Assembly: GCA_963666485.2 (NCBI GenBank)
Contig: CAXXUO010000004.1
Location: 96,001 to 160,000 of the forward strand
DNA from: Syntrophorhabdaceae bacterium
GTDB lineage: Bacteria; Desulfobacterota; Syntrophorhabdia; Syntrophorhabdales; Syntrophorhabdaceae
DNA: 64,000 nucleotides
Reading direction: 5' to 3'
Under the pieces are notes generated by a model, which made no database searches, was not told the origin of the DNA, and saw only the letters and a list, made by a program, of their open reading frames with translations. The position numbers and the translations under genes are program-made. How positions within the stretch are numbered: the stretch's first letter is position 1; every line of letters begins with the position of its first letter. Positions 9,019 to 44,377 of the stretch are shown one piece after another.

Positions 9019-10159
9019 TCATGTCCTGTCAAGCGCATTATTTACCTTCTCGACAACAAACGACTGCTCCGATTCTGTCATGCCAGGGAATAAAGGAAGG
9101 GTGATGGTCGTATCCTCGCCGAGACATGCGTTCGGAAAAACATCCGGGTCTATTCGATACTTATCCGCATAATATCCCAGGCGATGCACCGCCAGCGTTC
9201 CGGGCCTTGTCTGAATATCGTCCAACGAGAGGTGATCCATGATCCTGTTTCTTCTTGACCGTCCTCCATCCAGGAGTCTTATCACATAGGATTGATACGT
9301 GTGATGACATTTTTCGGGAATGACCGGTACGGCAATAGCCTCTATGTGCCGCAGGAATTCTGTATATCTTTCGGCAAGCATGATCCGTTCTTCGAGCAAT
9401 TTATCAAGCTTATGAAGTTGGGCGACCCCAACTGCCGCCTGTATATCGGAAAGCCTGAGATTATAACCCAGATTATTGAATGTAGACATAACCCATGGTT
9501 TTCCTGGATCGTCGATTCCTGGAGGAAGTCCTGTTGCGCCGTGGTTCCTCTGACTTCTTACCCTGGCGGCGATATCAGGTTTGTTCGTGGTGATCATTCC
9601 GCCTTCACCCGTGGTGACGACCTTCCGGGGGTGAAATGAAAAACAGCCCGCATCACCAATTGCTCCCACGGGTTTTTCTCCGTACAACGTGCCTACCGCA
9701 CATGCTGCGTCTTCAATAACAAAGAGGCCATTTTTCGCCGCGATGTCCATGATCTCGTGCATCTTCGCGGAAAGCCCGAAAAGATGTACCACTACTATTG
9801 CCTTTGTCCTGTCCGTGATTGCTCTTTCCAACGCAATGGGGTCCAGGTTATACGTATCAAGCTCAATATCCGCAAAAAACAGCCTTAGCACCGGTGTATT
9901 CCGCGCAGTGAGCCGAAGTCACCCATGTGAATGCCGGTACGATAACCTCGTCGCCGGGTCCGATTCCCAGCGCCAACATGGCAAGGTGTAAGGCGGCCGT
10001 ACAGGAGGTGGTTGCCAGTGCATGATCTACATGATGGCGCTCCGCGAACATCTTTTCAAAACGCTCAACGAACGGGCCCTGGGTCACCCACCCCGAATCC
10101 AGGCATTCCTTGAGAAGAGCTATTTCTTCTTCGTCAAACTTAGGAGCTGTCAGGTTCAT
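9019..10159 (-). pseudogene. DegT/DnrJ/EryC1/StrS sugar aminotransferase split by one +1 frameshift (possibly a sequencing error)
   Basis: ORF 9863-10159 gives the N-terminus (SCTAALHLA, GDEVIVP) and ORF 9019-9891 the rest (IEDAAC, SFHPRK). Removing one base at 9871-9879 restores the frame. Confidence 0.85.
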
Positions 10160-11166
10160 AAACGACCTCTTCCACTAAATATTTTGGTAACCGCTACCCT
10201 CAGGGCGGCTATCATATCATCCGGCAAATCGACATTCACGGAACGATCCAATCGATCTATGCTGTTTTCAGTCGGACTGATGGTACAACCCAGTCTGTCC
10301 AATCCACAGCAAATACTCGACAGCGTGCTGGAAGGTTCAGAGCAAAGCTGCTCGTAAGTGATCTGCAAGGAATTTACATGTACCCCCTTCAATTCCTCGT
10401 CTATTTCCCGCCGGCATTCAAATACCTGCATCGACACGTCATGGACGGGGTCGGGGCCGTGACCCGCAAAGGGCCACGTGGAAGGTTTCAAAGACCACCA
10501 TGTACTATAGGAACCAAAACGTTCGCGCCGTGATTTCAGGATCGACGCTGCTGTCATGAAGGGATCACGTTTGATGTGTATAAAAATGCTTTTGCCGTAT
10601 ATTTCAGTCAGGTATCTTGCCTGAAGGCCGCATATGACATTTTTGAAGACAACGGGGCGCCGAAATTGACCGAGAATTTCATGGATAAGAACTTTTCTTA
10701 GCCCTTCCGCATCGAGTTCCCCCAGATGTTCCTCGGGTATCTTGTGCGTGGGGAATTGATCCAGTTTAAGCCAGTGACGCCAAAAATACCCAAATTCATG
10801 CGGTTCGTGAGCGCCTTCTGTCGTCCCGAAATTAGACCGAAAGGAAATATTACGCCGATAATCATCGCCGAGAAGCATTCCGGATAGCCTAATACCCACT
10901 GACGGCCTCATCCAAAAACGTGCAACAACATTATTGATATATCCCACCGGAAGATAACGGCTCAGCATCTGTGAAAGAAGCGTCGTTCCCGATCTCGGGG
11001 CGCCTACTATATATACGAGAGGGTATTGCGAGTCCTTCGTTTCATCTTCATCAGGAAGGTCCGCTGACTGAAGCACTTCGTTCAATTTTGCTAGATATAC
11101 CTCGTCGGCCGTTTTCTTACGAAACGCAAGTGCCCTTATCCCTGGTTCATGCGGATCAAATTCCAT
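10156..11166 (-). CDS. PAPS-dependent sulfotransferase
   Basis: IVGAPRSGTT 5'-PSB loop, IHIKRDP...S 3'-PB motif, ITYEQLCSEP. Confidence 0.85.
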   Translation of the reverse strand: MEFDPHEPGIRALAFRKKTADEVYLAKLNEVLQSADLPDEDETKDSQYPLVYIVGAPRSGTTLLSQMLSRYLPVGYINNVVARFWMRPSVGIRLSGMLLGDDYRRNISFRSNFGTTEGAHEPHEFGYFWRHWLKLDQFPTHKIPEEHLGELDAEGLRKVLIHEILGQFRRPVVFKNVICGLQARYLTEIYGKSIFIHIKRDPFMTAASILKSRRERFGSYSTWWSLKPSTWPFAGHGPDPVHDVSMQVFECRREIDEELKGVHVNSLQITYEQLCSEPSSTLSSICCGLDRLGCTISPTENSIDRLDRSVNVDLPDDMIAALRVAVTKIFSGRGRL

Positions 11167-16582: not shown

Positions 16583-19441
16583 CTAGTTATTTCTTATTTC
16601 CATGTTGCAGCAATTCATCCCTGATTCGAATATTTTGTATCCCCGGGGATGCAGTTTTCCGTTCTGGCTGTTCATGAATACTTCTGTGGCGATACCTTTC
16701 TTCACGTCCGGAAAGATAAACATGCCATTATAACCGGTTTTTGTCGACAGGTATTCTTCGTCCTGTCTCAAGAATACCTCAAGCCCGTCTTCCCCGGAGA
16801 CAACGCGGCCGCCTATTACCGCGCTTTCGGGATGCCTGTGATCGACCCTCTCGGGGAGAAAAGAGATTCTGTGTAGTTCCACGAAGTCCCCGTCGGCGGA
16901 GTTATCTCCTGTCAGGATAACATGTATCCTGGACACCGAACCCGTCGGCAAACGCCTTGTTTGATTTCCGTTGTGTGACATGTCCTTCAGGTCGTATGTT
17001 CTATATTTGACCTTGCCCGCCTCGCTGCCCTTCATGCGGATACCGGCGTATTCGATACAACGGTCCGCTTCCTCGCACCATATGAACTCGTCCCGGTCTT
17101 CCACGGTAAAGCCTATACCGAGAAACATCGAATCACTATTCTTTCGGTATGCGAAATGAAAATAGCGCCCATCACCCAGTTCGAGGGAATCAGGTACAAA
17201 TGTAAGGCGCGCTGCACCGGGGCCGTTTTTCGTGAATTTGCCAACCGATAACCCGGCATCAAAATAATAGTCCCCCCCGGAGACGTCCAGCACCCCGGCC
17301 TGGTCGAAAAAACCGACCTTTCCATGAATAACCTTCTGGGAAGTGGCATCAAGGATCGTTACACTATTCCTTCCTGACTCATCCGGCCCGTTACATTTGT
17401 AAAAGTGATAAAGCTCGTTGTCGATGATCACGTCGGTCGTCTCGGGGTCGTCGACGTATATCGTGGCTCCGTGCAAGAATGATACCTGCCGTGAAATGAT
17501 CGGGCAGAAATGGTTGTGCCACAATCTGATGGAGACCGTTTTCTGACCTATGTCCAGGTGCCGGTCCAGGTCTCTCGTCATTGCAGCGTAACGGGCCAGC
17601 ACTGATGCTGGAGTCACCCAGATCCTGGGACCGCTCAGGCCTGATAAGTCCGCCTGCAGATCGGAGAGCACAAGAAGCGCCTCTACTGTCTGGTCGTTGA
17701 ATATCTCCTGCTCGGGCTGAAGGAGGATGTCCGCAGCTCCCCAGTGCACGTAAATGATTGCCGCATGGCCGGGCCTGACAGCTAATTGATGTATTGCCTC
17801 GGACAGCTGAAAACCGAGGTTTTCATTATGATGAATATCTGCATGCCTCGCATAATAGGGGTGTCCTTCCTTCTCTTCTGCGATATAGCGGGGTACTATG
17901 TAGATCGGACGGTCGTCTCGGCTTAAATCCTCGATCAACAGTTCTGTTATCAGGTTGGATGCGGAGTTCAGGGGGACATGGGGGTCATCTGCGGCAAACG
18001 CCATACGTGCCGGGCATATGAACGATACCCCTCTTTGAGCGAGCAGATCATAGTGATAGGCCGATGAGGAGCGCAGGTCAGCTTCGCCTGTTCTGTAAGG
18101 ATTGCCTCTAAAGATCGGTCCTTTGAAAGTGGGTGAGGTCATGGTTGAGACAAATTGCTTTCCGCCATGGCACACCATTAGGATGGGGATCATTTTCAGA
18201 GACTCCAAGACCGGCGCCTGACTCTCAACTATTGCCCTGTGAAAGGGCAGTGCACAAACACCTTCCAAGGCAAACCTGCCGCTGCCTTTTAGCGACAGGA
18301 CCATACGGTCAATAGATGCGCCCGGCACATCCAGCCTCGATCCAACCGGCTGGTTTCTTTCCTTGCTGTATAGCAGATATTTACCGTCGACAAGATCTGC
18401 GGGCTCCCATCCTGAACTCGACAGGAGTTCTCCCCTCAATACGACTGTATGGCTGCCGCCTCTGTTGTCGGTGAGGATCAATTCCGCTGTTTTCACGCCC
18501 GGATCGATCTGTGCGTTTATGACCAATCCATAGTTGCCAAAGGCCAGATAACCTGTATCCCGGCGATTAACGTCAATAACCTGTTCGATCTCGCCCTGCA
18601 CCTGAATGTCCAAAGGGGAACAAATGTTACCCGGCTCGACAAAATCATCATCCCAGGAATGGCATGAATCAAACCAACCGCGGTGGAACATCTCCAACAA
18701 TTCTGACGCGGTTTTGTTGTTAAGGTCCCCTGATGTATTACGAAAAAAGATACACGCATTCTCCGGCTGGCATGAGAGGTTCCCCGAAGGCCAGAAGGAG
18801 TCTCCCTGGTTAACGCCGATCTGGGATTCAATGTACTCGTGAATAGACCTGGCCATTCCGACGGTCATGCCGTCCACGTCGCTTGCAATGGCCAGCGCAT
18901 TGTTATAGGGAAAGGGCAAAACACGGCAATTCTTGCCCAACCGTGGGTCAACCTTCTGGTCTGTGAAAGGACGGGTCTTCTGTGCAAAAGCAATGCGCGC
19001 GTCCCTCGCTGCACCTGCGAGGTCCGCTATGTCCTGCCTCCTTTGCGGCTTGACGGGTTTTAAGATATAGACCCTCCCGTTCTTTCTGGGGTCGGAATTA
19101 TCTGAAGTGCTGAAATAGAGAAAGTTGTGCCAGTGTGAATAACCGCCTGAACCTCTGTTGATTATGGTTGCGTGCATGGAATGCGCAGGAAATAGTTCTT
19201 TGCCGTCCTCAAAAAGAATATACGTTGAATTCCTCGGTTTTTCCGTGGAGTCACCCTGTTCAGCCGGAAGCTCCAATCTTACCGAATATCCGAACGGCTC
19301 CAGGCAGTTGATATCGTTTGTGTTAATTACTCGTACCCCGGGGTCTTGCTGCGGCAATGTATCGACAGTTACAGGATCGATCACATCCCCAACCGCGCCT
19401 TTGAAGAAGATTTTTCTTATGTTCCTGATCATGGATGTCAT
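16583..19441 (-). CDS. 952-aa multidomain protein: N-terminal SHW..LYFS module plus a possible deacetylase-like region
   Basis: Long ORF in operon; FPYNNALAIASDVD, FDSCHSW, IYVHWG; shares a 76-aa module with 20231-21505. Confidence 0.6.
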   Translation of the reverse strand: MTSMIRNIRKIFFKGAVGDVIDPVTVDTLPQQDPGVRVINTNDINCLEPFGYSVRLELPAEQGDSTEKPRNSTYILFEDGKELFPAHSMHATIINRGSGGYSHWHNFLYFSTSDNSDPRKNGRVYILKPVKPQRRQDIADLAGAARDARIAFAQKTRPFTDQKVDPRLGKNCRVLPFPYNNALAIASDVDGMTVGMARSIHEYIESQIGVNQGDSFWPSGNLSCQPENACIFFRNTSGDLNNKTASELLEMFHRGWFDSCHSWDDDFVEPGNICSPLDIQVQGEIEQVIDVNRRDTGYLAFGNYGLVINAQIDPGVKTAELILTDNRGGSHTVVLRGELLSSSGWEPADLVDGKYLLYSKERNQPVGSRLDVPGASIDRMVLSLKGSGRFALEGVCALPFHRAIVESQAPVLESLKMIPILMVCHGGKQFVSTMTSPTFKGPIFRGNPYRTGEADLRSSSAYHYDLLAQRGVSFICPARMAFAADDPHVPLNSASNLITELLIEDLSRDDRPIYIVPRYIAEEKEGHPYYARHADIHHNENLGFQLSEAIHQLAVRPGHAAIIYVHWGAADILLQPEQEIFNDQTVEALLVLSDLQADLSGLSGPRIWVTPASVLARYAAMTRDLDRHLDIGQKTVSIRLWHNHFCPIISRQVSFLHGATIYVDDPETTDVIIDNELYHFYKCNGPDESGRNSVTILDATSQKVIHGKVGFFDQAGVLDVSGGDYYFDAGLSVGKFTKNGPGAARLTFVPDSLELGDGRYFHFAYRKNSDSMFLGIGFTVEDRDEFIWCEEADRCIEYAGIRMKGSEAGKVKYRTYDLKDMSHNGNQTRRLPTGSVSRIHVILTGDNSADGDFVELHRISFLPERVDHRHPESAVIGGRVVSGEDGLEVFLRQDEEYLSTKTGYNGMFIFPDVKKGIATEVFMNSQNGKLHPRGYKIFESGMNCCNMEIRNN

Positions 19442-20230: not shown

Positions 20231-21505
20231 TTATTGTTTTTCAGCCCAGCAGAAAAAATTAATACCCCGGGTGCCTTTTTCCCTGTATCTCATTTCCCCC
20301 CGATACATTGCCATAGCCAGTACTCCATTGATCTTTGAATGTATTGCCTTAAGGGATCGTGACTTCCAGAGCCTTGTCTTCATTTCCGCCAGGGGAAAAT
20401 TCTTAAAATTGAATTTTTCTGCAATGTAAATGAACATGAACCTGGGGTCGCAATTGAATTCATTATATTGCTTAATCCTGAACCCAACGGGTTCCAGGTA
20501 TTTTTCGATCTGAGGTCTTCCAATCAAATTCTGCGTGTACAGTTTCCGATATTCAAAGAAGGTTTTCTTTCCTCCAAACATCTTGTAAATGTGGAACGGA
20601 AACCACTTCTTATAATACAGTTCCGTAAAACCGCTAAAGAAAGCATTGCCGCCCTTGGTCAATATATACTGGAACGCCTGAAAGATCTTTTCCGTTTCAG
20701 GGCTGTCAAAATCATCGATGCTGTGGATCATTACGATCGTCCTATAGGTCCCGTGCTTCAAGGTCTGCGGAACCTTCAGGTCAAAATAGACGAACTCCTT
20801 GTGCGGCAAACGGTCCTGAAATTGCCTGCAATGATCGAAGCAGTATTCCGTGCCGGTCGTAAAACTGTAATTCAGGTAGCATATTGAACTGGCGCCTTCT
20901 CCCACGGCAATCTCGATAGAGGGGTCAACTATTTTCATGCTGCGAAAAAATTCACTGTCAAGATACTGTCTGAAATATTCGGTCAGAAGCGAAGGCCATC
21001 GAGGCTCGGTTAAATCGAAGATCGATTCGTAGAATCTGCAGAAATCCGCTTTATCGAAATCGACGTTTCGAAAAGACAACAGCTCGGGTAAAAACAATAG
21101 CCATGTAAGAATTCGGGTTACTATCCAGAGCAACATTCCGACGGCCGGCCTGTAAACGTCGGCCAGATACTTCCTTATAAGGGGAGGGACAATTCTCTTC
21201 CGCCGGGAAAGAACATACTGCATCCCATTTGACCGGGGATCGGAATTGTTGCTTGAAGAAAAATAGAGAGTATCTTCCCAATGTGAATATCGTCCATTTC
21301 CGTCGTTCACGATCTCCGAATGAAATGAATGCCCCGGGCCTATTTCAGAACTGTCTTCGAACAATTTCCAGGAAGAATGACGAGCATGACCGGAATCATC
21401 TCCCTCAGACTTCGAGAGGGGAAGACGTACTGTATACAAATTGCCGGAGACATGGTATACACCGGCAGGTTGAATCCTTATCTCTTTGTTTATGATATTC
21501 GTCAA
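20231..21505 (-). CDS. SHW..LYFS module fused to a divergent methyltransferase-like domain
   Basis: N-terminal shared module; SIEIAVGEG, HSIDDF, ILTKGG resemble class I MTase motifs. Confidence 0.55.
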   Translation of the reverse strand: MTNIINKEIRIQPAGVYHVSGNLYTVRLPLSKSEGDDSGHARHSSWKLFEDSSEIGPGHSFHSEIVNDGNGRYSHWEDTLYFSSSNNSDPRSNGMQYVLSRRKRIVPPLIRKYLADVYRPAVGMLLWIVTRILTWLLFLPELLSFRNVDFDKADFCRFYESIFDLTEPRWPSLLTEYFRQYLDSEFFRSMKIVDPSIEIAVGEGASSICYLNYSFTTGTEYCFDHCRQFQDRLPHKEFVYFDLKVPQTLKHGTYRTIVMIHSIDDFDSPETEKIFQAFQYILTKGGNAFFSGFTELYYKKWFPFHIYKMFGGKKTFFEYRKLYTQNLIGRPQIEKYLEPVGFRIKQYNEFNCDPRFMFIYIAEKFNFKNFPLAEMKTRLWKSRSLKAIHSKINGVLAMAMYRGEMRYREKGTRGINFFCWAEKQ

Positions 21506-21562: not shown

Positions 21563-22807
21563 TTACTGTCTTCTTATATCGCCCCATTTTGCATCGCCTT
21601 CATACGCATATGGCACCGGGGCGCGCCATGAATAACGCCGCTTTACGAAAAACTTGCGGCATCGTCTCTCCAGGGCGATAATATCACCTTCTTTTCTGAT
21701 CAGTGTGTCCCGGGTAATTCCGAGTGTAAGCCAATATTCACCTGCGCCGAGGAGGAGTTCGTCTGTAGAAATCTCAAACGTGCCTTCCCCGGCCAGGCCA
21801 TCAAAAATAAGTCCCTGTTCATTGCCGTCAGAGCCGGTGATCCAAATACCTTCAGAACTCTCTATTCTATACAAAGGCATGATATCCTGTTTTGGGCTGC
21901 TGCCTTTCCATGAAAAACGGAGTCTGAAGGGCTCTCCCTGCATGAACGTCGTCTTCTCGATTCCATCGTGATCACATGTCTTTATGTCGTAAATCTCTAT
22001 CTCGCCGGTACCTTCACGGTATGACGCGCTGTGAAGAGCATTTTGCAGTTCCTGTTCCGGCTCTTCCGCTTGAGTCCCGTGGATCAATTGCTGCACATAT
22101 TTTTCATAGGCCATGCATACGCCCATTGATACGTCGTAAAACTTCACCTTGCCTTCATGTATCCACAATGCCCGCTGGCAGATACGTTTGACAAGGTCGA
22201 GTGTATGCGAAACAAAAAGAACTGTGGTGCCGCTCCTGCAAATATCGTAGATCCTTTCAAGACATTTGCTGACAAAGTAGGAGTCGCCGGCTGCAAGCGC
22301 CTCATCCAGAATGAAGATATCGGGTTCAATGCTCATTGCTGTTGAAAACGTCAATCTCGCCTGCATCCCGCTTGAATATGTTTTGAAGGGCCTGTCGATA
22401 ACGCTGCGTAACTCGCTAAAATCAATAATGGACTCTACCTTTTTGTCAATTTCGTCACGACTCATCCCGAGGCACATGCCGCCCATATATATATTTTCCC
22501 GTCCTGTATATTCGCTGTGAAATCCGGATCCCAGTTCAAGGATAGCGGATATCTTGCCATCTATATGAACATTACCGGATGTTTTATCGAGAGTGCCTGC
22601 CAATATCTTCAGGAGAGTACTCTTGCCGGCTCCGTTAGGGCCTATGATCCCTACCACCTCGCCTCTTTTTACCTCAAACGAAACATCCTGCAATGCCCAG
22701 AACTGCTCATGAAACGGCTTTCCGGTCACAAGTTCTTTGAACATGTCTTTGGGCTTGTTGTAAATCTTGTACATTTTTGAAAGGTTCTCGACCTTGATAG
22801 CACTCAT
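21563..22807 (-). CDS. wzt: Polysaccharide ABC exporter ATP-binding subunit with C-terminal carbohydrate-binding domain
   Basis: [33 protein letters not shown]; about 170-aa C-terminal extension. Confidence 0.9.
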
Positions 22808-22822
22808 AAATACCGTTCCCTG

Positions 22823-24727
22823 TTATTTCCCTGATATGATCTCTTTACGATAAAGGTATTCAAGGATCTTGTCTAGGATTCCGGAAACATCTTCCGATTC
22901 CGTATTTACCACGATCTCCGGATCGAGCGGTTCTTCATAAGGGGATGAGATTCCGGTAAACTCAGATATCTGACCACTGCGGGCCTGTTGATAAAGTCCA
23001 TGGGGGTCCCTTTGCGCACACGTATCGATGCCGCACTGCACATAGATCTCGATAAAACGGGAACCGTCTATAATTGACCTGACGAAGTCCCGGTCTCTCC
23101 GGAAAGGGGAGATGAAGGTGCATAAGACTATGTTCCCTGCTTCGTAAAAAAGTCTCGCCGTTTCACCTGCGCGCCGTATATTTTCACTTCTGTCCCTGTC
23201 GGAGAACCCGAGATCCCCGCATAATCCATGCCTTAAATGATCTCCATCCAAGAGCATCGTCAGGCAATCCATATCAAAGAGCTGTCTTTCCAGGCGTTGC
23301 GCAATTGTTGATTTTCCCGATCCGGAATAACCCGTAAACCAAAGAACAGCCGCTCCGTGATTATTCCGGAATTCACGTTCCACGCGGCTTATATTGCACT
23401 TGTGCCACACGGCATTTGGCGACCTCATCCTAAGGTCTTCCGTACTGGCAGACTCATTGATAATCTCTCCCAGTGAACGGGAAGCGCCACGGATGACCCC
23501 GGCAGCCACCGTATTGTTGCTCAAGGCGTCTATAAGAATAAAACTGCCCGTTGCCCTGTTCGTTTTGTAATTATCGAAAAACACGGGTTGGGAGGTGCGG
23601 ACCTGCACTCTGCCGATCTCATTGAGACCAAATGTGTCCGCCGCCTCGCGATGCAGGGTGTTCATATCGATCTTATAAGTGATGCTGTCGATAAATGCCT
23701 TTACAGACCGGGTGGTGTGTTTTAGGATATACGGTTTATCACCGGACAGGGGTGTTTCATCCATCCAGCATATCGTGGCGTCGAATTTATTGCTGATGAC
23801 AGGGACGTTATTTTTCCGGACGATCATGTCGCCGCGGCTGACGTCGACCTCGTCCTCCAGGGTCATCACGACAGATTGTGGGCAAAACGCCTCGGGCAGT
23901 TCGCCGTCATATGTCACGATCCGCTTGACGCGGGTGGTGCGGGCCGAAGGCAGGACGATCACCTCCTCGCCCGGCGAAACAGTGCCGGAGACGATCTTCC
24001 CCGCAAATCCGCGAAAATCAAGATGGGGCCGAATAACGTACTGGACGGGAAACCGGAAATCTATAAGGTTCCTGTCGGCTGAAACATGGATGTTCTCCAG
24101 GTAATGCAGCAAGGTCACATCATCATACCACGGCATATTGCCGCTTTTTTCAACGACGTTGTCACCCCTCAGGGCAGAAACAGGGATGAAGACGATGTCG
24201 TGGACGTCAAGCTTTTCCGAGAACTCGCCATACTCCTCCACTATCCCATTGAACACATCCTCGGAATAATCGACAAGATCCATCTTGTTGACGGCCACCA
24301 GGATCCTCGGTATCTGCAGGAGCGATGCGATGAACCCGTGGCGCTTCGACTGGGTCAGCACCCCATTTCTGGCATCGATAAGGATAATGGCGCAATCGGC
24401 TGTCGACGCGCCTGTCACCATATTGCGCGTATATTGAACATGTCCCGGCGTATCGGCTATGATGAACTTTCTTTTCGCCGTCTCAAAATAGCGGTATGCG
24501 ACATCGATAGTGATCCCCTGCTCCCGCTCCGCGGACAGTCCGTCGAGCAGTAACGCCAGGTCTACGTCTGCCAGGCCCTTGCGTTCCGATGTCTTCTGTA
24601 TGGCGGCATACTGGTCTTCATAGATGGATTTCGTTTCATACAGCAGGCGCCCGATAAGGGTGGATTTCCCGTCATCGACGCTGCCCGTCGTCGTAAAACG
24701 CAATATTGACTTTTCCCCGCCAGGCAC
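22823..24727 (-). CDS. cysNC: Bifunctional sulfate adenylyltransferase subunit 1 / APS kinase (NodQ-like)
   Basis: TTGSVDDGKSTLIGRL, DTPGH, NKMD; second domain WFTGYSGSGKST, LDGD, FTGISSPYE. Confidence 0.95.
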   Translation of the reverse strand: MPGGEKSILRFTTTGSVDDGKSTLIGRLLYETKSIYEDQYAAIQKTSERKGLADVDLALLLDGLSAEREQGITIDVAYRYFETAKRKFIIADTPGHVQYTRNMVTGASTADCAIILIDARNGVLTQSKRHGFIASLLQIPRILVAVNKMDLVDYSEDVFNGIVEEYGEFSEKLDVHDIVFIPVSALRGDNVVEKSGNMPWYDDVTLLHYLENIHVSADRNLIDFRFPVQYVIRPHLDFRGFAGKIVSGTVSPGEEVIVLPSARTTRVKRIVTYDGELPEAFCPQSVVMTLEDEVDVSRGDMIVRKNNVPVISNKFDATICWMDETPLSGDKPYILKHTTRSVKAFIDSITYKIDMNTLHREAADTFGLNEIGRVQVRTSQPVFFDNYKTNRATGSFILIDALSNNTVAAGVIRGASRSLGEIINESASTEDLRMRSPNAVWHKCNISRVEREFRNNHGAAVLWFTGYSGSGKSTIAQRLERQLFDMDCLTMLLDGDHLRHGLCGDLGFSDRDRSENIRRAGETARLFYEAGNIVLCTFISPFRRDRDFVRSIIDGSRFIEIYVQCGIDTCAQRDPHGLYQQARSGQISEFTGISSPYEEPLDPEIVVNTESEDVSGILDKILEYLYRKEIISGK

Positions 24728-25683
24728 TAGAAGTAGCCTTCCTTCTTCTTCTGTTCCATCGATGAGTCGCTCGTCAGGTCAATGATGCGGTTTTCGCGTT
24801 CTGACTTGCGGGCACGCCTCACCTCGCCAATGATACCGTCTATTGTCGTCGATCCCGATTCGATCGCACCCGTGCACGGAATACATCCGAGGCTCCGGAA
24901 ACGGCTCATGACAATTTCGACCTCTTCGCTATCAGTTCCCTCGCCCTGCCCGTCACCCCCTGGCGTCCCCTTCCCCCCTGGGCCATTCACGGTTGAACAG
25001 GAAGACACCGGGATCAGGATCCCCTTTCTTCGGATCACGGGCCTTTCCTGTGCGTAATAGATGGGCACTATAGGTATGTTCTCGAGTTTTATATATTGCC
25101 ACACATCCTGTTCCGTCCAGTTGCTTAAAGGAAAGACGCGGACGGTCTCACCCTCATTTATGCACGTATTGAACAGGTCCCAGACCTCGGGCCGCTGGTT
25201 CTTGGGGTCCCATTGTCCATGCGGATCTCTAAGAGAAAAGACCCTCTCTTTTGCCCTTGATTTCTCTTCGTCCCTTCGTGCCCCGCCAAACGCGGCGTCA
25301 AAACCATGCTTCCTGATGGCGTCGAGCAGCGCCCCCGTCTTAAGGTAGCTGCAGCATTTGTCGACCCCTATCTTCAACGGATGGCATCCGTTCTCGATCA
25401 TCTCCTCGTTGCGTTCCACTATCAGCCTGGCCCCGATCTCCCGGCAGAAGCGGTCCCGGAATTCGTACATCTCCGGGAACTTGAAGCCGGTGTCTACGTG
25501 CATCAACGGAAAGGGGAATTTCCCCGGATAAAAAGCCTTCTGGGCAAGCCTGACCATAACGCTCGAGTCTTTTCCCACGGAATAAAGCATGACGGGATTC
25601 TGAAATTCGGCAACAACTTCCCGCATTATATGTATGGATTCGGATTCGAGCTGCCTGAGAAAAGAGATGGTGTAAGAACTCAT
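24727..25683 (-). CDS. cysD: Sulfate adenylyltransferase subunit 2
   Basis: [46 protein letters not shown]. Confidence 0.96.
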
Positions 25684-26537
25684 CAGCTGATCTCGCCGCT
25701 TATGTATGCTTTTGTTCTTTCATCTTTTGGATCGTTCAGGAATTGAACTGCGGGACCGTATTCAACCAATTCTCCCATGTAGAGAAAGACAATATAGTCG
25801 GCGATCCTTTTTGCCTGCCGGAGAATATGGGTCACGACAATTATCGTGTATTTCTGTTTCAGCAATCTGAACTGCGCCTCGACGAGCTTCGCCGAGATGG
25901 GATCCAGCGCAGACGTCGGTTCGTCGGCGAGAATGATCTCCGGCTCGATGGCGAGCACGCGGGCGAGTGCCAGTCTCTGCTGCTGGCCGATGGAAAGCTT
26001 CGAAGCAGGCGCGTGCAGCCTGTCCTTCACCTCTTCCCAGAGTCCTGCCAACCTCAGGTAATACTCTACGAGGAGATTCATTTCCCGCTCTTTGTTCCCT
26101 TTTTTGATTGTTTCTTTCTTTTCAAAGAAACCGTCAAAAACATGGTTGAATTTTTCTTTCTCCGATATCTTTTCGAAGATGTTGCCACCGTTGATCTTAT
26201 GGATGCGCGGCCCGAAGGCTATGTTGTCATATATGGACATGGGTAAGGGGTACGGCCTCTGGGGCAGGAACCCCACCCTCTTCCTGAGGTCTATAACATC
26301 GGTCCCGCTCCCGTAGATATCGGTCCCGTCTATATATATGTCCCCCGTCACCCTGACATCCTCGTTCAACTCAAGAAGCCTGTTCATACTCTTGAGAAGC
26401 GTGGTTTTTCCGCACCCGGATGGCCCGATAATAGCGATTATCTGTTTTTCCGGAATATCAAGGATGATGTTTTGGAGGACCTGGTGGCTCCCGTAGGACA
26501 CCGTCAAGCCGTCCACATGGATTGTTGACATGAACAA
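25683..26537 (-). CDS. pstB: PstB-like ABC ATPase
   Basis: [36 protein letters not shown]. Confidence 0.85.
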
Positions 26538-26540
26538 GCC

Positions 26541-27389
26541 TTATCGAATGAGGTGCTTCGAAAATCTCCAGCCCAGAAAACGGGATACGATACTCACAAG
26601 CAATACGATCATGAGAAGTATAAGCGCCGAAGCGAAGGCCCTTTCCTGGACCTCCGGTACAGGGGTGCCGGCCTGGAAGAACACGGCAAGCGGCAGTGAC
26701 GCGACGGGATCCAGCAAAGACCCCGGTATCTCATCCGTGTACCCGGCGGTAAATAGTATCGATGCGGCATCGCCGATGCCGCGTCCGAACGCCAAAATCA
26801 CCGCGGTGCAGATCCCGGGGAATGCCTGCCTGAATATCACTGAAAAGGTCGTTTCCAACCGGGTAGTGCCGAGGGCGTACGATACCTCCTTTAGCTCGAA
26901 AGGGACCATACGGATCGCCTCTTCCATGGACCTGATCATAATGGGCAGCATAAGAAGCGTCAGCACAATTATCCCGCCCAACAGCGAAGCACGCAGCCCG
27001 AAATAGACCATAACAACGAATCCGAAAGCGCCATAGACGATCGAGGGCGTTCCCCAGAGTATATCGAGTATCAAACGCGTATAATCCCCGAAAATCCTGT
27101 GCGTGTACTCCTTCTGCAGGGCAAGCGCCACGGGGAGGCTGATCATTATCGCGATGATCAAAGAGCCCGACACAAGCAGGAATGAACCGACGATCGCGTT
27201 TGCGATTCCCCCTTCCCTTCCCAGGTAATAACCTCCCTTCGGAGTGCTGAAGATCATGGAGAGGTTCATGGCCGAAAATCCTTTAGCGGCAATGACCATG
27301 ACGATACCGACCAGGGACAAAAGGACAACTGTCACCGAAGCGATCATCAACGCTTTGAATATGTTTTCTTCCAGATTCCTTGAATTCAC
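26541..27389 (-). CDS. pstA: PstA-like ABC permease
   Basis: GGIANAIVGS, PSIVYG, EVSYALG EAA-like loop. Confidence 0.85.
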   Translation of the reverse strand: MNSRNLEENIFKALMIASVTVVLLSLVGIVMVIAAKGFSAMNLSMIFSTPKGGYYLGREGGIANAIVGSFLLVSGSLIIAIMISLPVALALQKEYTHRIFGDYTRLILDILWGTPSIVYGAFGFVVMVYFGLRASLLGGIIVLTLLMLPIMIRSMEEAIRMVPFELKEVSYALGTTRLETTFSVIFRQAFPGICTAVILAFGRGIGDAASILFTAGYTDEIPGSLLDPVASLPLAVFFQAGTPVPEVQERAFASALILLMIVLLVSIVSRFLGWRFSKHLIR

Positions 27390-28307
27390 TCAGTCTCCGG
27401 AAACACTAAGCCTCAATAGGGTAAAATGCGCCGTAACGCTGAAACCGGCGACGATCAGGAGCAGTATGAGCGCTGCGAGCATCAAGGCGGAATCGTACAG
27501 TGGGATCGACATGACCTCCCCGTAATTATTTGCGATCAAGGCAGGTAACGGGTATGCGGCATCGAAAATGGACGACGGTACCTGCGGAACGTTTCCGACA
27601 ACCATCAATACGGCCATGGTCTCGCCGAAGGCCCGCGCAAACCCGAGGACCACCGCGGCAATGAGCCCTCTTCTGGACTTTCGCAGCACAACATATTTCA
27701 CCGTCTCCCACCTCGTTGCCCCCAGGGCCAGTGCAGATTCACGTACCTGTGCGGGTACCATCCTCAGCACCTCCAGAGAAACAGAGATAACGAACGGGAC
27801 GACCATAACCGCCAGAATGATCCCGCCCGACAACAGGCTGTATCCGGTTGTGTCCATCCCCAGCAATTCGCCGATCTTGCCGACAAACGGCACTACTACC
27901 AGAATTCCGCAAAGTCCGTAGATAACGGAAGGTATTCCGGCCAGTATGTCGATGATGAGATGTGCGAATTCGCGAAAATGCCTGTGAGCATACTCTGACA
28001 GGTAAATAGTGCTCAAAAGACAGATCGGCATCGAGATGACCATGGCAAGCAGTGTGACCTCGACCGTGCTCACGATAAAGGGAAAAAGTCCGAATTGATT
28101 GTTGAGCGGATGCCATGACGAAGACAGCAAGAGACGTGCCAGGGACGTCCCGGATATGATCGGTAACGATTTAAGCAACAAACCAAAAAGAATTATGAAA
28201 AACACTACACTGACAAATATCAGGCTGCAGCGCATTCCAAGGCTGGCGACGAAGTCCTTGGACCGTCTGATGCGAAGCCAGCCTTTCATACCGCCATTAC
28301 CGGCCAA
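27390..28307 (-). CDS. pstC: PstC-like ABC permease
   Basis: LAGIPSVIYG, RESALALGATRWE, ARAFGETMAVLMVVGN. Confidence 0.88.
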   Translation of the reverse strand: MAGNGGMKGWLRIRRSKDFVASLGMRCSLIFVSVVFFIILFGLLLKSLPIISGTSLARLLLSSSWHPLNNQFGLFPFIVSTVEVTLLAMVISMPICLLSTIYLSEYAHRHFREFAHLIIDILAGIPSVIYGLCGILVVVPFVGKIGELLGMDTTGYSLLSGGIILAVMVVPFVISVSLEVLRMVPAQVRESALALGATRWETVKYVVLRKSRRGLIAAVVLGFARAFGETMAVLMVVGNVPQVPSSIFDAAYPLPALIANNYGEVMSIPLYDSALMLAALILLLIVAGFSVTAHFTLLRLSVSGD

Positions 28308-29298
28308 GCTTTTTCAATGCCTCTCTGGCCTGGCCTTGCTTTATCTTCAGATACCCAACCTCATCGACGTACCGCTGCCCATCGGATAGGATCCATTTCA
28401 CGAAATCCATTGCAGGGCCCTGGAACTGCCCTTTTGTGACGAGATAAAGATCCCGTGCAGGAGGCGAAGGATAGACTCCCGAATTGACCGCCTCTATGGC
28501 CTCGTGCTTATTCCTGAGCCTTTCCTGGGGATCGATCTTGCCGTTCTCGTTCACATCGATCGGGACCACCTGGAGTCCAGGGACCGGTTTGCCGGTTTTC
28601 ATGTCAAAGGCATAGTTAAGATTGTTGAACCCAATCGCGTTCTTGTCTTTTCTTACAGCTTCGGCGACACCCGGATCGCCGTACACGGCGACACCCTTAA
28701 GGTCCTCCTGGTTCTTTCCAAAGTATTTCGCCCAGGTTTCCGCGGCACCACATGAATCGGACCTGGTGTAGACCCTGACCTTTTGATGGGCCGATGTTCC
28801 TGCAAGTTCTCCCCAGGTCATGGACCGTCCGGATATCCACAGATCCACAAGTGTCTTCTTTCGTATTCCTTTTTCCAGTATCTGCGGAAGAACAGGATTA
28901 TCTTGATTTATAGTGGGGAAAACCGCGTCTTTCACGACGGCGACGGAGAAGACGCCCCGTTTCGCCTCCTCGGGCCTGATCTCGCGGGAAACCATTCCAA
29001 TATCGACGAATCCGTTCGTGGCATCCACGATACCCTTTCCGGCCCCTCCAGCCGAAACGTCTATCCGGACCTTCGGATAGATTTTCTTATACTCTTCGGC
29101 CCATTTGACCATCATGGGATAGAGGGCCCATGCTCCCGAAACTCTGATCGTCCCTTGCACCAGGCCAATTTGTGCTGCTTTGCCCTGTCTTTGTTGCCCC
29201 CCTTCAGACGCGTTGACAACAGACAACCCCAGGAAGAACAGAAAAAGTCCACATAGGATGATCAAACAACGTTTTGTGCCTTGATATCGCGTGCGCAT
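28297..29298 (-). CDS. pstS: PstS-family periplasmic oxyanion-binding protein with an atypical binding site
   Basis: Likely start ATG at 29298 (MRTRY...) followed by a signal/TM segment; SGAWALYP, GGAGKG, DIGMVSR, RSDSCGA, YP..RDLY. Confidence 0.8.
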   Translation of the reverse strand: MRTRYQGTKRCLIILCGLFLFFLGLSVVNASEGGQQRQGKAAQIGLVQGTIRVSGAWALYPMMVKWAEEYKKIYPKVRIDVSAGGAGKGIVDATNGFVDIGMVSREIRPEEAKRGVFSVAVVKDAVFPTINQDNPVLPQILEKGIRKKTLVDLWISGRSMTWGELAGTSAHQKVRVYTRSDSCGAAETWAKYFGKNQEDLKGVAVYGDPGVAEAVRKDKNAIGFNNLNYAFDMKTGKPVPGLQVVPIDVNENGKIDPQERLRNKHEAIEAVNSGVYPSPPARDLYLVTKGQFQGPAMDFVKWILSDGQRYVDEVGYLKIKQGQAREALKKLGR

Positions 29299-29327: not shown

Positions 29328-30176
29328 CTACAGAACGTTCCCAAACATGACCTTCAGCTTTCGGAATATCCGGTACCCAACATAGAACGTTCCTACGCTG
29401 AGACAGATATAGACAACCCAGGCCCACCAATGTTCAAATCGGCCGAAATAGAATATATCCTGATAGCACCAGGCGAGATAGCTAAAAGGATTGAGATACA
29501 AAAGGGGGCGAAAGATTGCCGGTACCTGGTCGGGTAAATAAAAGATCGGCATGATATACATGCCCAGCAAACAGAAAACTTGTGTGAAGTCTTTGAGGTC
29601 GCGAAAATAGGTCCCGATCGAGGAAAGGACATACGACATGCCGATCATGCCCAGGACCTGGAAAAAGACCGGCACCGGGATAAGTACGTATGTCCACAGA
29701 AGCCCCTTGTGAGTGATAAGAACATACAGGATCAAAAATACTGTCAGTATGATCTGGGTGACGAGTGATGATATGACAGTCTTGATAGGAAGGACCTCTA
29801 CGGGAAAAATGACCTGCTTTACAAGATTCGAGTTTCCCGTTATTGATGTCGTGGACTTCATCATGGTTTCCTGGAATGCCATCCAGGGGATGAGGGCGCA
29901 TAATAAATAGGTCGTGTAATCCAGGGGAAGTTTATATGTCCCCCCGATCTTCATCTTGAAAACGTAGGCAAAAATGAAAACATAAACGGCGATAAGCGCG
30001 AGGGGATGCCCTACCGCCCAGAAAAGTCCGAATAATTGCCCGGCATACCGTTCCGATATCTCCCTCTTCGACATTTCCCATGTCAGTTGGCGATGCCGCG
30101 TCAGGAGACTTAATATTTCCTGAATAGCGGCAAAATGATTCTTTACATTAAATACTTTGCTGATAAGCACTTTCAT
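29328..30176 (-). CDS. wzm: Polysaccharide ABC exporter permease
   Basis: REISERYAGQLFGLFW, NLVKQVIFP, FRDL, PIFY, LNP. Confidence 0.9.
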   Translation of the reverse strand: MKVLISKVFNVKNHFAAIQEILSLLTRHRQLTWEMSKREISERYAGQLFGLFWAVGHPLALIAVYVFIFAYVFKMKIGGTYKLPLDYTTYLLCALIPWMAFQETMMKSTTSITGNSNLVKQVIFPVEVLPIKTVISSLVTQIILTVFLILYVLITHKGLLWTYVLIPVPVFFQVLGMIGMSYVLSSIGTYFRDLKDFTQVFCLLGMYIMPIFYLPDQVPAIFRPLLYLNPFSYLAWCYQDIFYFGRFEHWWAWVVYICLSVGTFYVGYRIFRKLKVMFGNVL

Positions 30177-42469: not shown

Positions 42470-44377
42470 TCAAATTAATTTCAGTTGCAATATGGTCTTT
42501 TTTAACGCATCGCAGACTACGTTTATTTCTTCAATATTCATGTTGTTGTGAAAAGGTAGTGCGATTGTCGATTCGCCTGCGCTCTCGGATACCGGGAATG
42601 ACCCGGGCTTATGACCGAATCTCTCCCGGTAGAAATTCTGCAAATGAATGGGGGTGAAATAAGGCCTGGTAGGGATTCCGAGTTTGGCCATTGCCTCGAT
42701 AACATCGTCCCGACCGATCCCGTTTTCCAATCGAACGACATAGACAAACCAGCTCATCCGCGTCGTTGTTGGCGCAATGTCCAGTATCTTTACTTCATCT
42801 ATGGAGATCAGGACTTTCTTGTAAAGGTCGGCGACATCATTCCTCTTTTTCAGTATCTCGTCAAGCCTTTTCAGCTGCACAACTCCCACGGCGGCATTAA
42901 GTTCGGACATGCGATAATTATATCCAAGGCGTGAATGGTTTAACCACCCATCCATTATATCCCTGCCCTGATTGCGAAGACTTCTCATGAGATCTGCCCA
43001 CGCACCGTCGTTTGTGACTATTACGGCCCCTTCACCTGTCGTCATCTGTTTATTGGGATAAAATGCAAAGGTACCGGCCTTCCCGATCGTACCGACGCGG
43101 CGGCCCTTGTAATGCGCGCCAATCGCTTCACACGCGTCTTCGATAACGATCAGGCCGTGCTTTGCCGCAATGTCCATGATGGGGTCCATATCCGCCGGTT
43201 GACCAAAGATGTGAACGGGGATTATGGCTTTTGTTCTTTCCGTGATCGCAGCCTCAATTTTCGCCGGATCGATATTGAGCGTGTCGGGGTCGATATCGAC
43301 AAATACGGGGGTGCCCCTCTCGAAAAGAATGCAGTTGGCGGAAGAGATGAAGCTGAAAGGGCTTGTGATCACTTCATCTCCCGGTTCTATGTTCGATGCA
43401 ACCATGCACATGTGCAACGCGCTGGTCCCGTTAGATACGGCGATAGCATGCTTTGCGTCCGCCTGTTCCGCCATGAGCTTTTCGAATAACACGGTTTGGG
43501 AACCAATGCTCAGGTTCCTCGATTGCATGACCTTTACAACCCCTTCTATTTCCTCGCGGGTGATATCCGGCATTGACATAGGAAGCCTTAAACCAACGCT
43601 GGTTCCCAAAACCGGTTGCTCGATATCGCCCAGGATCCCCGACAAATGAGGTACGGTCCTATAAGGCAGCGAGGCTTCCCGGCATATGTTCTGGATATTC
43701 CTGATCGTCTGGTCGGCTGCGCTCGGGATTGCAATGATCACTTCGTCTATCGATAATTTTTTTGCGACATCTTTCAAGGTGATAATGGGGCCGTACACCT
43801 TCACATCCGCTATGTTCATTGTGATCTTTGCCGGGTCGTCATCAAGAAAAGCTGCGGCCTGCAACCCGAGATAAGGGTTGTTCCTCATTTCATTCAAGGC
43901 ATATGTACCGGCGGTCCCTGCCCCGATGATCAAGGCCCGGCGGCCAGGCTCAAGACCGGTCTTCTGCCAGTCGATATCTCCGGCATAATGAATGTTCTTA
44001 CTGAGAAAAAAACGTAAAGACATAAGAAGCAGAAGGCTTAAAGAGCCTTCGAGAAAAACTACGGATTTTCCGATCAGGTAGATCAAATTCAATTTCAAAA
44101 CAAAGTAATTCAAGAAAAGGAGCAGTAAAGAGCCCGCCACGATACTGATGGCGACAGTCAGGAAATCACGGGCCGTCGCATAACGCCATATGGTCTTATA
44201 GCTGCCCGACAGAAAAAGGAAGAGCGGTCTGATGATAACGGCTGCCAGAACAAAAGGCAGTATATCGATGAACTGAAACCAGGATGAAAAATATGATCCC
44301 CTGCCGAGCCTGACCGCGAAGATGACAGAAAGTGATGTCAGGAAAATGTCATATAATATCCAGTAATATAACTTCAT
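42470..44377 (-). CDS. Fusion protein: CapD/PglF-type membrane and Rossmann N-terminus plus a DegT aminotransferase
   Basis: About 4 TM segments, RALIIGAGTAG, FLDDDPAK, DEVIIAIPS; then SNGTSALH, IEDACEAIG, FAFYPNKQMTTGEG. Confidence 0.85.
   Translation of the reverse strand: MKLYYWILYDIFLTSLSVIFAVRLGRGSYFSSWFQFIDILPFVLAAVIIRPLFLFLSGSYKTIWRYATARDFLTVAISIVAGSLLLLFLNYFVLKLNLIYLIGKSVVFLEGSLSLLLLMSLRFFLSKNIHYAGDIDWQKTGLEPGRRALIIGAGTAGTYALNEMRNNPYLGLQAAAFLDDDPAKITMNIADVKVYGPIITLKDVAKKLSIDEVIIAIPSAADQTIRNIQNICREASLPYRTVPHLSGILGDIEQPVLGTSVGLRLPMSMPDITREEIEGVVKVMQSRNLSIGSQTVLFEKLMAEQADAKHAIAVSNGTSALHMCMVASNIEPGDEVITSPFSFISSANCILFERGTPVFVDIDPDTLNIDPAKIEAAITERTKAIIPVHIFGQPADMDPIMDIAAKHGLIVIEDACEAIGAHYKGRRVGTIGKAGTFAFYPNKQMTTGEGAVIVTNDGAWADLMRSLRNQGRDIMDGWLNHSRLGYNYRMSELNAAVGVVQLKRLDEILKKRNDVADLYKKVLISIDEVKILDIAPTTTRMSWFVYVVRLENGIGRDDVIEAMAKLGIPTRPYFTPIHLQNFYRERFGHKPGSFPVSESAGESTIALPFHNNMNIEEINVVCDALKKTILQLKLI

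Follow-up and report, generated by a model that had tools for sequence, protein, structure and literature searches.

The locus described here raises the question of what a PstS-type ABC transporter takes up when its binding protein has lost most of the hydroxyl side chains of a phosphate pocket and its genes run into those for sulfate activation. In the window (the whole 64,000-nucleotide stretch of DNA that was analyzed), the genes lie on one strand (minus) in the order wzm, pstS*, pstC, pstA, pstB, cysD, cysNC, wzt, where pstS* is the variant binding-protein gene. A wzm-like ABC-2 glycan export permease gene (29328..30176) ends 30 bases ahead of pstS* (28297..29298; 333 aa, product P0001), after which come genes for a PstC-like permease (27390..28307; start TTG 28307 or ATG 28289), a PstA-like permease (26541..27389), and a PstB-like ABC ATPase (25683..26537) with no phoU after it. 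The pstB stop overlaps the start of cysD (TGATG; ATP sulfurylase subunit 2, 24727..25683, the sole copy in the genome), and the cysD stop overlaps the start of cysNC (TAGTG; 22823..24727), which family models identify as the ATP sulfurylase GTPase subunit fused to an adenosine 5′-phosphosulfate (APS) kinase, which makes 3′-phosphoadenosine 5′-phosphosulfate (PAPS). At both junctions stop and start share one base, and the remaining gaps are at most 30 bases. A wzt-like glycan export ATPase gene with a Wzt_C domain (21563..22807) starts 16 bases past cysNC. No phoU was found within the window.

This run lies in a glycan cluster (window positions 1 to 39700) with 49% G+C, compared with 54.5% for the genome, and the variant occurs in one of eight sampled genomes of the same family; both observations fit an acquired glycan cluster. 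The same cluster encodes a sulfotransferase (10156..11166, minus strand; PF13469, 52 bits) that is the likely consumer of PAPS; PF13469 has no second match in the genome. Two further minus-strand genes of the cluster (16583-19441 and 20231-21505; 952 and 424 aa) had no family match over cutoff; by eye, their products have in common a short N-terminal stretch resembling H-x-x-I-x-x-x-G-x-G-x-Y-S-H-W. Elsewhere in the window, a plus-strand gene (42470-44377) encodes a 635-aa protein in which a membrane/CoA-binding N-terminal part is fused to a DegT sugar aminotransferase. The genome, which is 99% complete, holds three ordinary pstS genes, two of them flanked by regulator/kinase and phoU-like genes. 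A profile search of the genome gave no match to Sbp, while one SulP-family gene is present, so the organism may have another sulfate route. No clear CysH match was found in the genome (one weak 44-bit match lies elsewhere). With a single cysD, no clear CysH, and a sulfotransferase in the cluster, the likely end use of the pathway would be PAPS for glycan sulfation.

A preliminary description, made from the sequence of the window, called P0001 a PstS homolog, and family searches and comparisons of an AlphaFold model bear this out. P0001 matches PF12849 (Pfam) with 102 bits, and its best sequence matches in the PDB are phosphate-binding proteins (4GD5, E = 3e-18). The model (pLDDT 86) superimposes on the Ser-type phosphate-binding protein 4Q8R with a Z score of 27.3 and an rmsd of 2.0 Å over 237 residues, whereas the best ModA entry reached a Z score of 17.4, and the top rows of both Foldseek and a second structure comparison were all phosphate-binding proteins. 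Modeled in this way, P0001 falls within the PstS/PBP structural family, with a type II binding-protein fold nearest PstS. Pocket equivalences were taken from the sequence alignment of P0001 to phosphate-bound PBP-1 (4Q8R/4GD5). P0001 nevertheless falls below both curated PstS cutoffs (113.7 of 206.6 for TIGR02136 and 63.6 of 205 for TIGR00975). It is also below the cutoff of the ModA-type model PF13531 (22.4 of 25 bits), and the Sbp model TIGR00971 gave no match at E = 0.001. The start is the ATG at 29298, preceded by a purine-rich AAGAGGG, and by eye the N-terminus looks like a signal peptide.

Three motifs had been singled out as altered, and all three are present in P0001: SGAWALYP at residues 54 to 61 (29116-29139, minus strand), GGAGKG at residues 84 to 89 (29032-29049, minus strand), and RSDSCGA at residues 179 to 185 (28744-28764, minus strand). 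In the alignment to PBP-1, A56, W57, and A58 replace Ser11, Thr12, and Ser13; A86 replaces Ser41; C183 stands for Ser129 and A185 for Thr131, with G184 between them; R179 corresponds to the retained Arg125; and S104 occupies the position of the acceptor Asp of Asp-type PstS. The proposed pattern of Ser/Thr-to-Ala changes thus holds for A56, A58, A86, and A185 but not for Thr12, which becomes Trp or Phe, or for Ser129, which becomes mostly Cys. By this alignment, five of the six listed hydroxyl donors of PBP-1 are gone, among them Thr12, Ser41, Ser129, and Thr131, as is Ser13. Both positions proposed to accept the phosphate proton are Ala, namely, A58 (Ser13 in PBP-1, Thr17 in SphX) and A185 (Thr131 and Thr148, respectively). 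Kept in the alignment are the glycine-rich backbone loops, Arg179, Ser104, and an Asp124-Arg282 pair. A56 alone is not diagnostic, because both Asp-type PstS proteins of the same genome read GATFP there.

The role of two Thr/Ser residues as acceptors of the phosphate proton in Ser-type PstS was proposed in a 2026 study (PMC13614923), in which SphX Thr17Ala, matching Ala58, abolished phosphate binding, SphX Thr148Ala weakened it, and PBP-1 Ser13Ala lowered it about 30-fold; ordinary PstS1 and SphX gave no response to sulfate. These mutants at equivalent positions, together with the consistent separation of the variant from phoU described below, back the earlier suggestion of altered specificity. 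The classic sulfate-binding protein Sbp has no proton acceptor and hence rejects protonated anions. It is described as holding sulfate without counter-ions, through polarized peptide hydrogen bonds (PMC2193177). A pocket that offers hydrogen-bond donors but no acceptor would exclude HPO4(2-), whereas a tetrahedral anion in its fully ionized form, such as SO4(2-), would be accepted. Taken by itself, the predicted P0001 pocket points to a proton-free oxyanion, among which sulfate, thiosulfate, molybdate, and tungstate are not separable by the pocket.

Of 8,000 candidates scored in a homolog search, 7,998 proved to be relatives, and in all 120 of the close homologs listed the motif residues did not vary. 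Across 137 distinct relatives from many phyla (80 GTDB loci plus sampled genomes; identity at least 44%, median 54%), A56, A58, A185, R179, K88, and N226 were each present in all 137, as were D181 and D208, and A86 was present in 136, compared with a median column conservation of just 66%. In comparison, 26 ordinary PstS proteins carry Ser/Thr at positions 56, 58, 86, 183, and 185. Since the motif residues are invariant among relatives, the pocket changes reflect more than chance and are not drift. Carriers include Bacteroidota, Chloroflexota, Desulfobacterota, NC10, Armatimonadota, Omnitrophota, Bathyarchaeia, and ANME archaea, a list biased to close relatives because it covers the best 80 of the 570 confirmed. 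A quick tree built from 68 selected rows grouped the clade with its divergent paralogs on a single branch (SH-aLRT 100) adjoining Ser-type PstS, and in FastTree analyses the clade's PstA and PstC each formed a branch of their own. Databases name clade members phosphate-binding, SphX, or merely substrate-binding, and we found no account of the variant clade in the open literature, a coverage outside which most subscription journals fall.

Several members depart from the usual arrangement. Divergent second binding-protein copies, tandem or in-frame with the core copy, occur at L075:8770-10963, G326:C171, G381:C16, and G391:C13, and the pocket motifs of these copies have decayed in a different manner. 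At three loci of Chrysiogenia/Aminicenantes type (L033, L047, and L053), the binding protein is encoded without permeases beside an unnamed gene of 340 to 375 aa and STAS/SpoIIE signaling genes, an arrangement that suggests a sensing role. ANME-type archaea carry the variant at L024 and L030 (Methanospirareceae and Methanoperedenaceae), with cysD and cysN continuing the run at L024. Which transporters import sulfate in ANME archaea is considered uncertain in one account (PMC6286981).

The membrane and ATPase partners are of Pst type. PstC and PstA pass the NCBIfam phosphate cutoffs, and PstB reaches 308.7 of 343.2. The permeases score 4 to 5 times higher on the PstC/PstA models than on the CysT and CysW models (50 of 246 and 45 of 329 bits, respectively), and the ModB model gave 61.6 of 182.6 bits. 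Three Escherichia coli residues credited with phosphate binding or specificity (PMC12976172)—PstA Arg220, PstC Arg237, and PstC Glu241—are kept as R203, R225, and E229, which shows that the channel still handles an anion; the kept arginines count mildly against a full switch from phosphate. PstA Glu224 is replaced by Asp in 81 of 81 clade members (D207 here). In the PstB-like ATPase (25683-26537), a lysine/glutamate-rich insertion near residues 112 to 145 splits the family match in two.

Gene neighborhoods in relatives were annotated for cluster representatives and selected adjacent genes. Within 10 kb of the variant in 80 GTDB loci, we found cysD in 22, cysN in 21, cysH in 11, a sulfite-reductase-like gene in 6, and cysK in 4; any sulfur enzyme was present in 27, an Rrf2 regulator in 28, and phoU in none. 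Among the 43 loci of at least 18 kb, 19 had a sulfur enzyme and 12 lacked any counted sulfur marker. The cysD genes linked to the variant come from three groups that are only distantly related, and they lie upstream or downstream of it or face it; the association was therefore gained or retained on more than one occasion. An Sbp-like gene, counted apart from the sulfur markers, occurs in 5 of the 80 loci, and a porin O/P-family gene is a frequent neighbor (21/80). Genes for Mo/W enzymes or cofactors adjoin about seven loci (L012, L014, L035, L066/L216, L211, L220, and L226), some loci carry TauE, DsrE, YeiH, FocA-family, or polysulfide-reductase genes, and an alkaline phosphatase gene and a PPK2 gene adjoin the variant at L226 and L171, respectively. 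A PALP gene at L158, considered as a cysK candidate, was rejected as a threonine dehydratase and left out of the counts.

A matched control compared both types of locus within the same genomes, using 20 of the 39 Bacteroidales genomes that have both, with long contigs favored. The phoU gene lay beside ordinary pstS in 17 of 20 genomes and beside the variant in none, whereas sulfur enzymes lay beside the variant in 4 of 20 (7 of 20 with Rrf2 included) and beside ordinary pstS in none; 13 of the 20 variant loci had neither a sulfur enzyme nor an Rrf2 gene nearby. With 20 further loci included, phoU adjoined the variant in 0 of 120 loci, a count in which a few genomes appear twice and many loci end at contig ends.

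Other features recur in parts of the collection. In nine Chloroflexota loci (L020, L025, L034, L048, L073, L209, L210, L212, and L217), a distantly Sbp-like gene (TIGR00971, 120 of 155 bits) comes after pstB, so that the variant run includes a second, sulfate-type binding protein; a Usp gene and a gene for a membrane protein that weakly matches Na/Pi cotransporters are part of these runs as well. In a group made up of L012, L015, L235, and L229, a gene of the alkaline phosphatase superfamily (PF01663 in L015) lies between pstB and a short type of cysD, or, at L229, a similar-looking gene lies between sat and cysC, and two runs of this group are preceded by what by eye are small ribbon-helix-helix-like regulator genes. 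Many variant operons (e.g., L157, L063, and L080) have a gene for an Rrf2 regulator with four cysteines immediately upstream or in divergent orientation. CymR was the best of the named models for this neighbor, but its score (77 of 195) was far under cutoff and the assignment was rejected. The exact palindrome CTAT-N7-ATAG was no more frequent ahead of variant loci than in shuffled sequence (3 of 77 versus a shuffled mean of 3.1). A looser palindrome, GTCTAY-N7-RTAGAC, occurred in 18 of 28 Rrf2-linked regions compared with 14 of 69 and 4 of 20; genome-wide it was no commoner than the control in four of five genomes, and it was not a feature of the cysD or sat operons examined. As the operator tests gave no link to sulfur operons, we draw no regulatory support from them.

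The association with sulfate activation extends to whole genomes in some lineages. Among Bacteroidales, about 36% of those sampled carry the variant clade, and cysD was present in 87 of 91 carriers versus 90 of 159 other genomes (the center genome was left out, and three genomes with only divergent paralogs were counted as noncarriers); of the Bacteroidales with ordinary PstS, 57 of 70 had cysD. In the phylum of the window genome, cysD was present in 3 of 3 carriers versus 33 of 197 others, and a fourth carrier has cysD linked to the variant. No enrichment was seen in Anaerolineae, where 12 of the 18 carriers and 90 of the 132 other genomes had sat or cysD. Because related genomes were treated as independent, these figures overstate significance. 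Sbp was found in none of 251 Bacteroidales, 178 of which have cysD.

Because the phosphate-recognizing residues are absent and the genes form one run with those of the sulfate-activation enzymes, we consider the system, as read from its genes, likely to be a Pst-derived ABC importer for sulfate, with a probability of roughly 70%. Sulfate had been put forward earlier as plausible, and operon context, the matched control, and co-occurrence make it the best candidate, with Anaerolineae the lineage that shows no enrichment of sulfate activation. In the mechanism that we envisage, the anion would enter through the permeases, which retain both membrane arginines, with ATP as the energy source; CysDN would convert it to APS, and the fused kinase would convert APS to PAPS. 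In this genome, PAPS would then go to the cluster sulfotransferase and yield a sulfated, exported surface glycan; relatives that have cysH, sulfite reductase, and cysK would use it to make cysteine.

The argument from the pocket applies equally to any oxyanion without a proton, and the transporter might take up a different or wider set of such sulfur oxyanions, above all thiosulfate (a CysP substrate), with sulfate in second place. Thiosulfate use needs no ATP sulfurylase, and 6 of the 18 Anaerolineae carriers have no detected sat or cysD; the TauE, DsrE, YeiH, FocA-family, and polysulfide-reductase genes at some loci would also suit it. The partner enzyme here and in 22 of 80 loci is nevertheless ATP sulfurylase, whose substrate is sulfate, and in the window it is joined to the transporter by a direct stop/start overlap with cysD, so that thiosulfate as the chief substrate appears unlikely. 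Molybdate and tungstate are also fully ionized, and an importer for them, or a broad oxyanion importer with lineage-dependent use, would be in keeping with the Mo/W-related neighbors at about seven loci. The genome already has two separate proteins that we take, from their motifs, to be TupA-like, ModA structures match the model far worse than PstS does (Z of about 17 versus 27), and sulfur neighbors are more numerous (27 of 80 loci with sulfur enzymes); the co-occurrence with cysD would be left unexplained. Even allowing for the reported overlap of E. coli ModABC with sulfate uptake (PMC5840216), a Mo/W or broad importer strikes us as improbable.

Continued phosphate import, at low affinity or with the invariant Asp208 or Asp181, for instance, as a new proton acceptor, would account for the Pst-type fold, permeases, and ATPase, the PstC and PstA scores over the NCBIfam cutoffs, and the kept membrane arginines. 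The frequent porin O/P-family neighbor also fits phosphate, as does the finding that no TIGR02136-type PstS is present in 52 of the 91 carriers from Bacteroidales (a count that leaves out the Asp type), but absence of ordinary PstS is common in that order, since 128 of 250 genomes have neither type. Against phosphate stand the two acceptor positions occupied by Ala and the Asp position occupied by Ser, the absence of phoU from all 120 variant loci compared with its presence at 17 of 20 ordinary ones, and the three ordinary pstS genes that this genome already holds. Asp208, moreover, is placed by the model at the beginning of a helix, which it probably caps. We regard phosphate as highly improbable and return to sulfate as the preferred substrate.

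If sulfate import is correct, the variant supplies a sulfate ABC importer for lineages in which the classic one was not found, part of the metagenomic "pstS" signal of phosphate limitation concerns sulfur, and many anaerobe genes labeled "phosphate transporter" may be mislabeled. The variant is also a natural test of the rule that donor-only pockets discriminate sulfate from phosphate, set on the phosphate-binding scaffold itself. On balance, we favor a broader proposal: that these proteins make up an undescribed family of ATP-driven sulfate importers, which arose from Pst by stripping of the proton-accepting hydroxyls, is the principal ABC route for sulfate uptake in anaerobic Bacteroidales, syntrophs, some Chloroflexota, and methane-oxidizing archaea, and is called "pstS" in databases.

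Among known systems, the closest are Ser-type PstS proteins (Clostridium perfringens PBP-1, 4Q8R/4GD5, and Synechocystis SphX; PMC5381212, PMC13614923), with which the variant has in common the fold, the four-gene layout, and the layout of the pocket, including Arg125, Ser59, Gly130, and the Asp-Arg pair. It differs in that Ser11, Thr12, Ser13, Ser41, Ser129, and Thr131 become A, W/F, A, A, C/A, and A, in lacking phoU, in its sulfur-gene context, in scoring under the TIGR02136 cutoff, and in forming its own branch with the divergent paralogs. E. coli PstSCAB, of the Asp type (9K3S/9K3X; PMC12976172), likewise has PstA Arg220, PstC Arg237, and Glu241, whereas the variant has Ser104 for the acceptor Asp, Asp for PstA Glu224, and no phoU. 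The family models for the ModABC/TupABC binding protein (PF13531) and for ModB did not reach cutoff. According to a review, five families of sulfate transporters are known, of which SulT is the ABC type (PMC5840216). The job proposed for the variant, ATP-driven uptake of a fully ionized sulfur oxyanion, is like that of SulT Sbp/CysP-CysTWA (TC 3.A.1.6; PMC5840216), and the cys-gene context is alike, with cysD-cysNC directly downstream here and cysD in 22 of 80 related loci. The variant is nonetheless a separate lineage, with no TIGR00971 match and with permeases that are Pst-type by model. In function it is probably a sulfate ABC importer that stands outside SulT, built of Pst parts whose predicted pocket lacks the phosphate-recognition residues and whose genes lack the phoU neighbor. 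A precedent for such a change comes from Bacillus subtilis CysP, described as a permease of the PiT phosphate transporter family that turned to sulfate through the loss of phosphate-critical residues and is encoded with sat (PMC5840216); CysP is a secondary carrier of another superfamily, whereas the variant is an ABC system.
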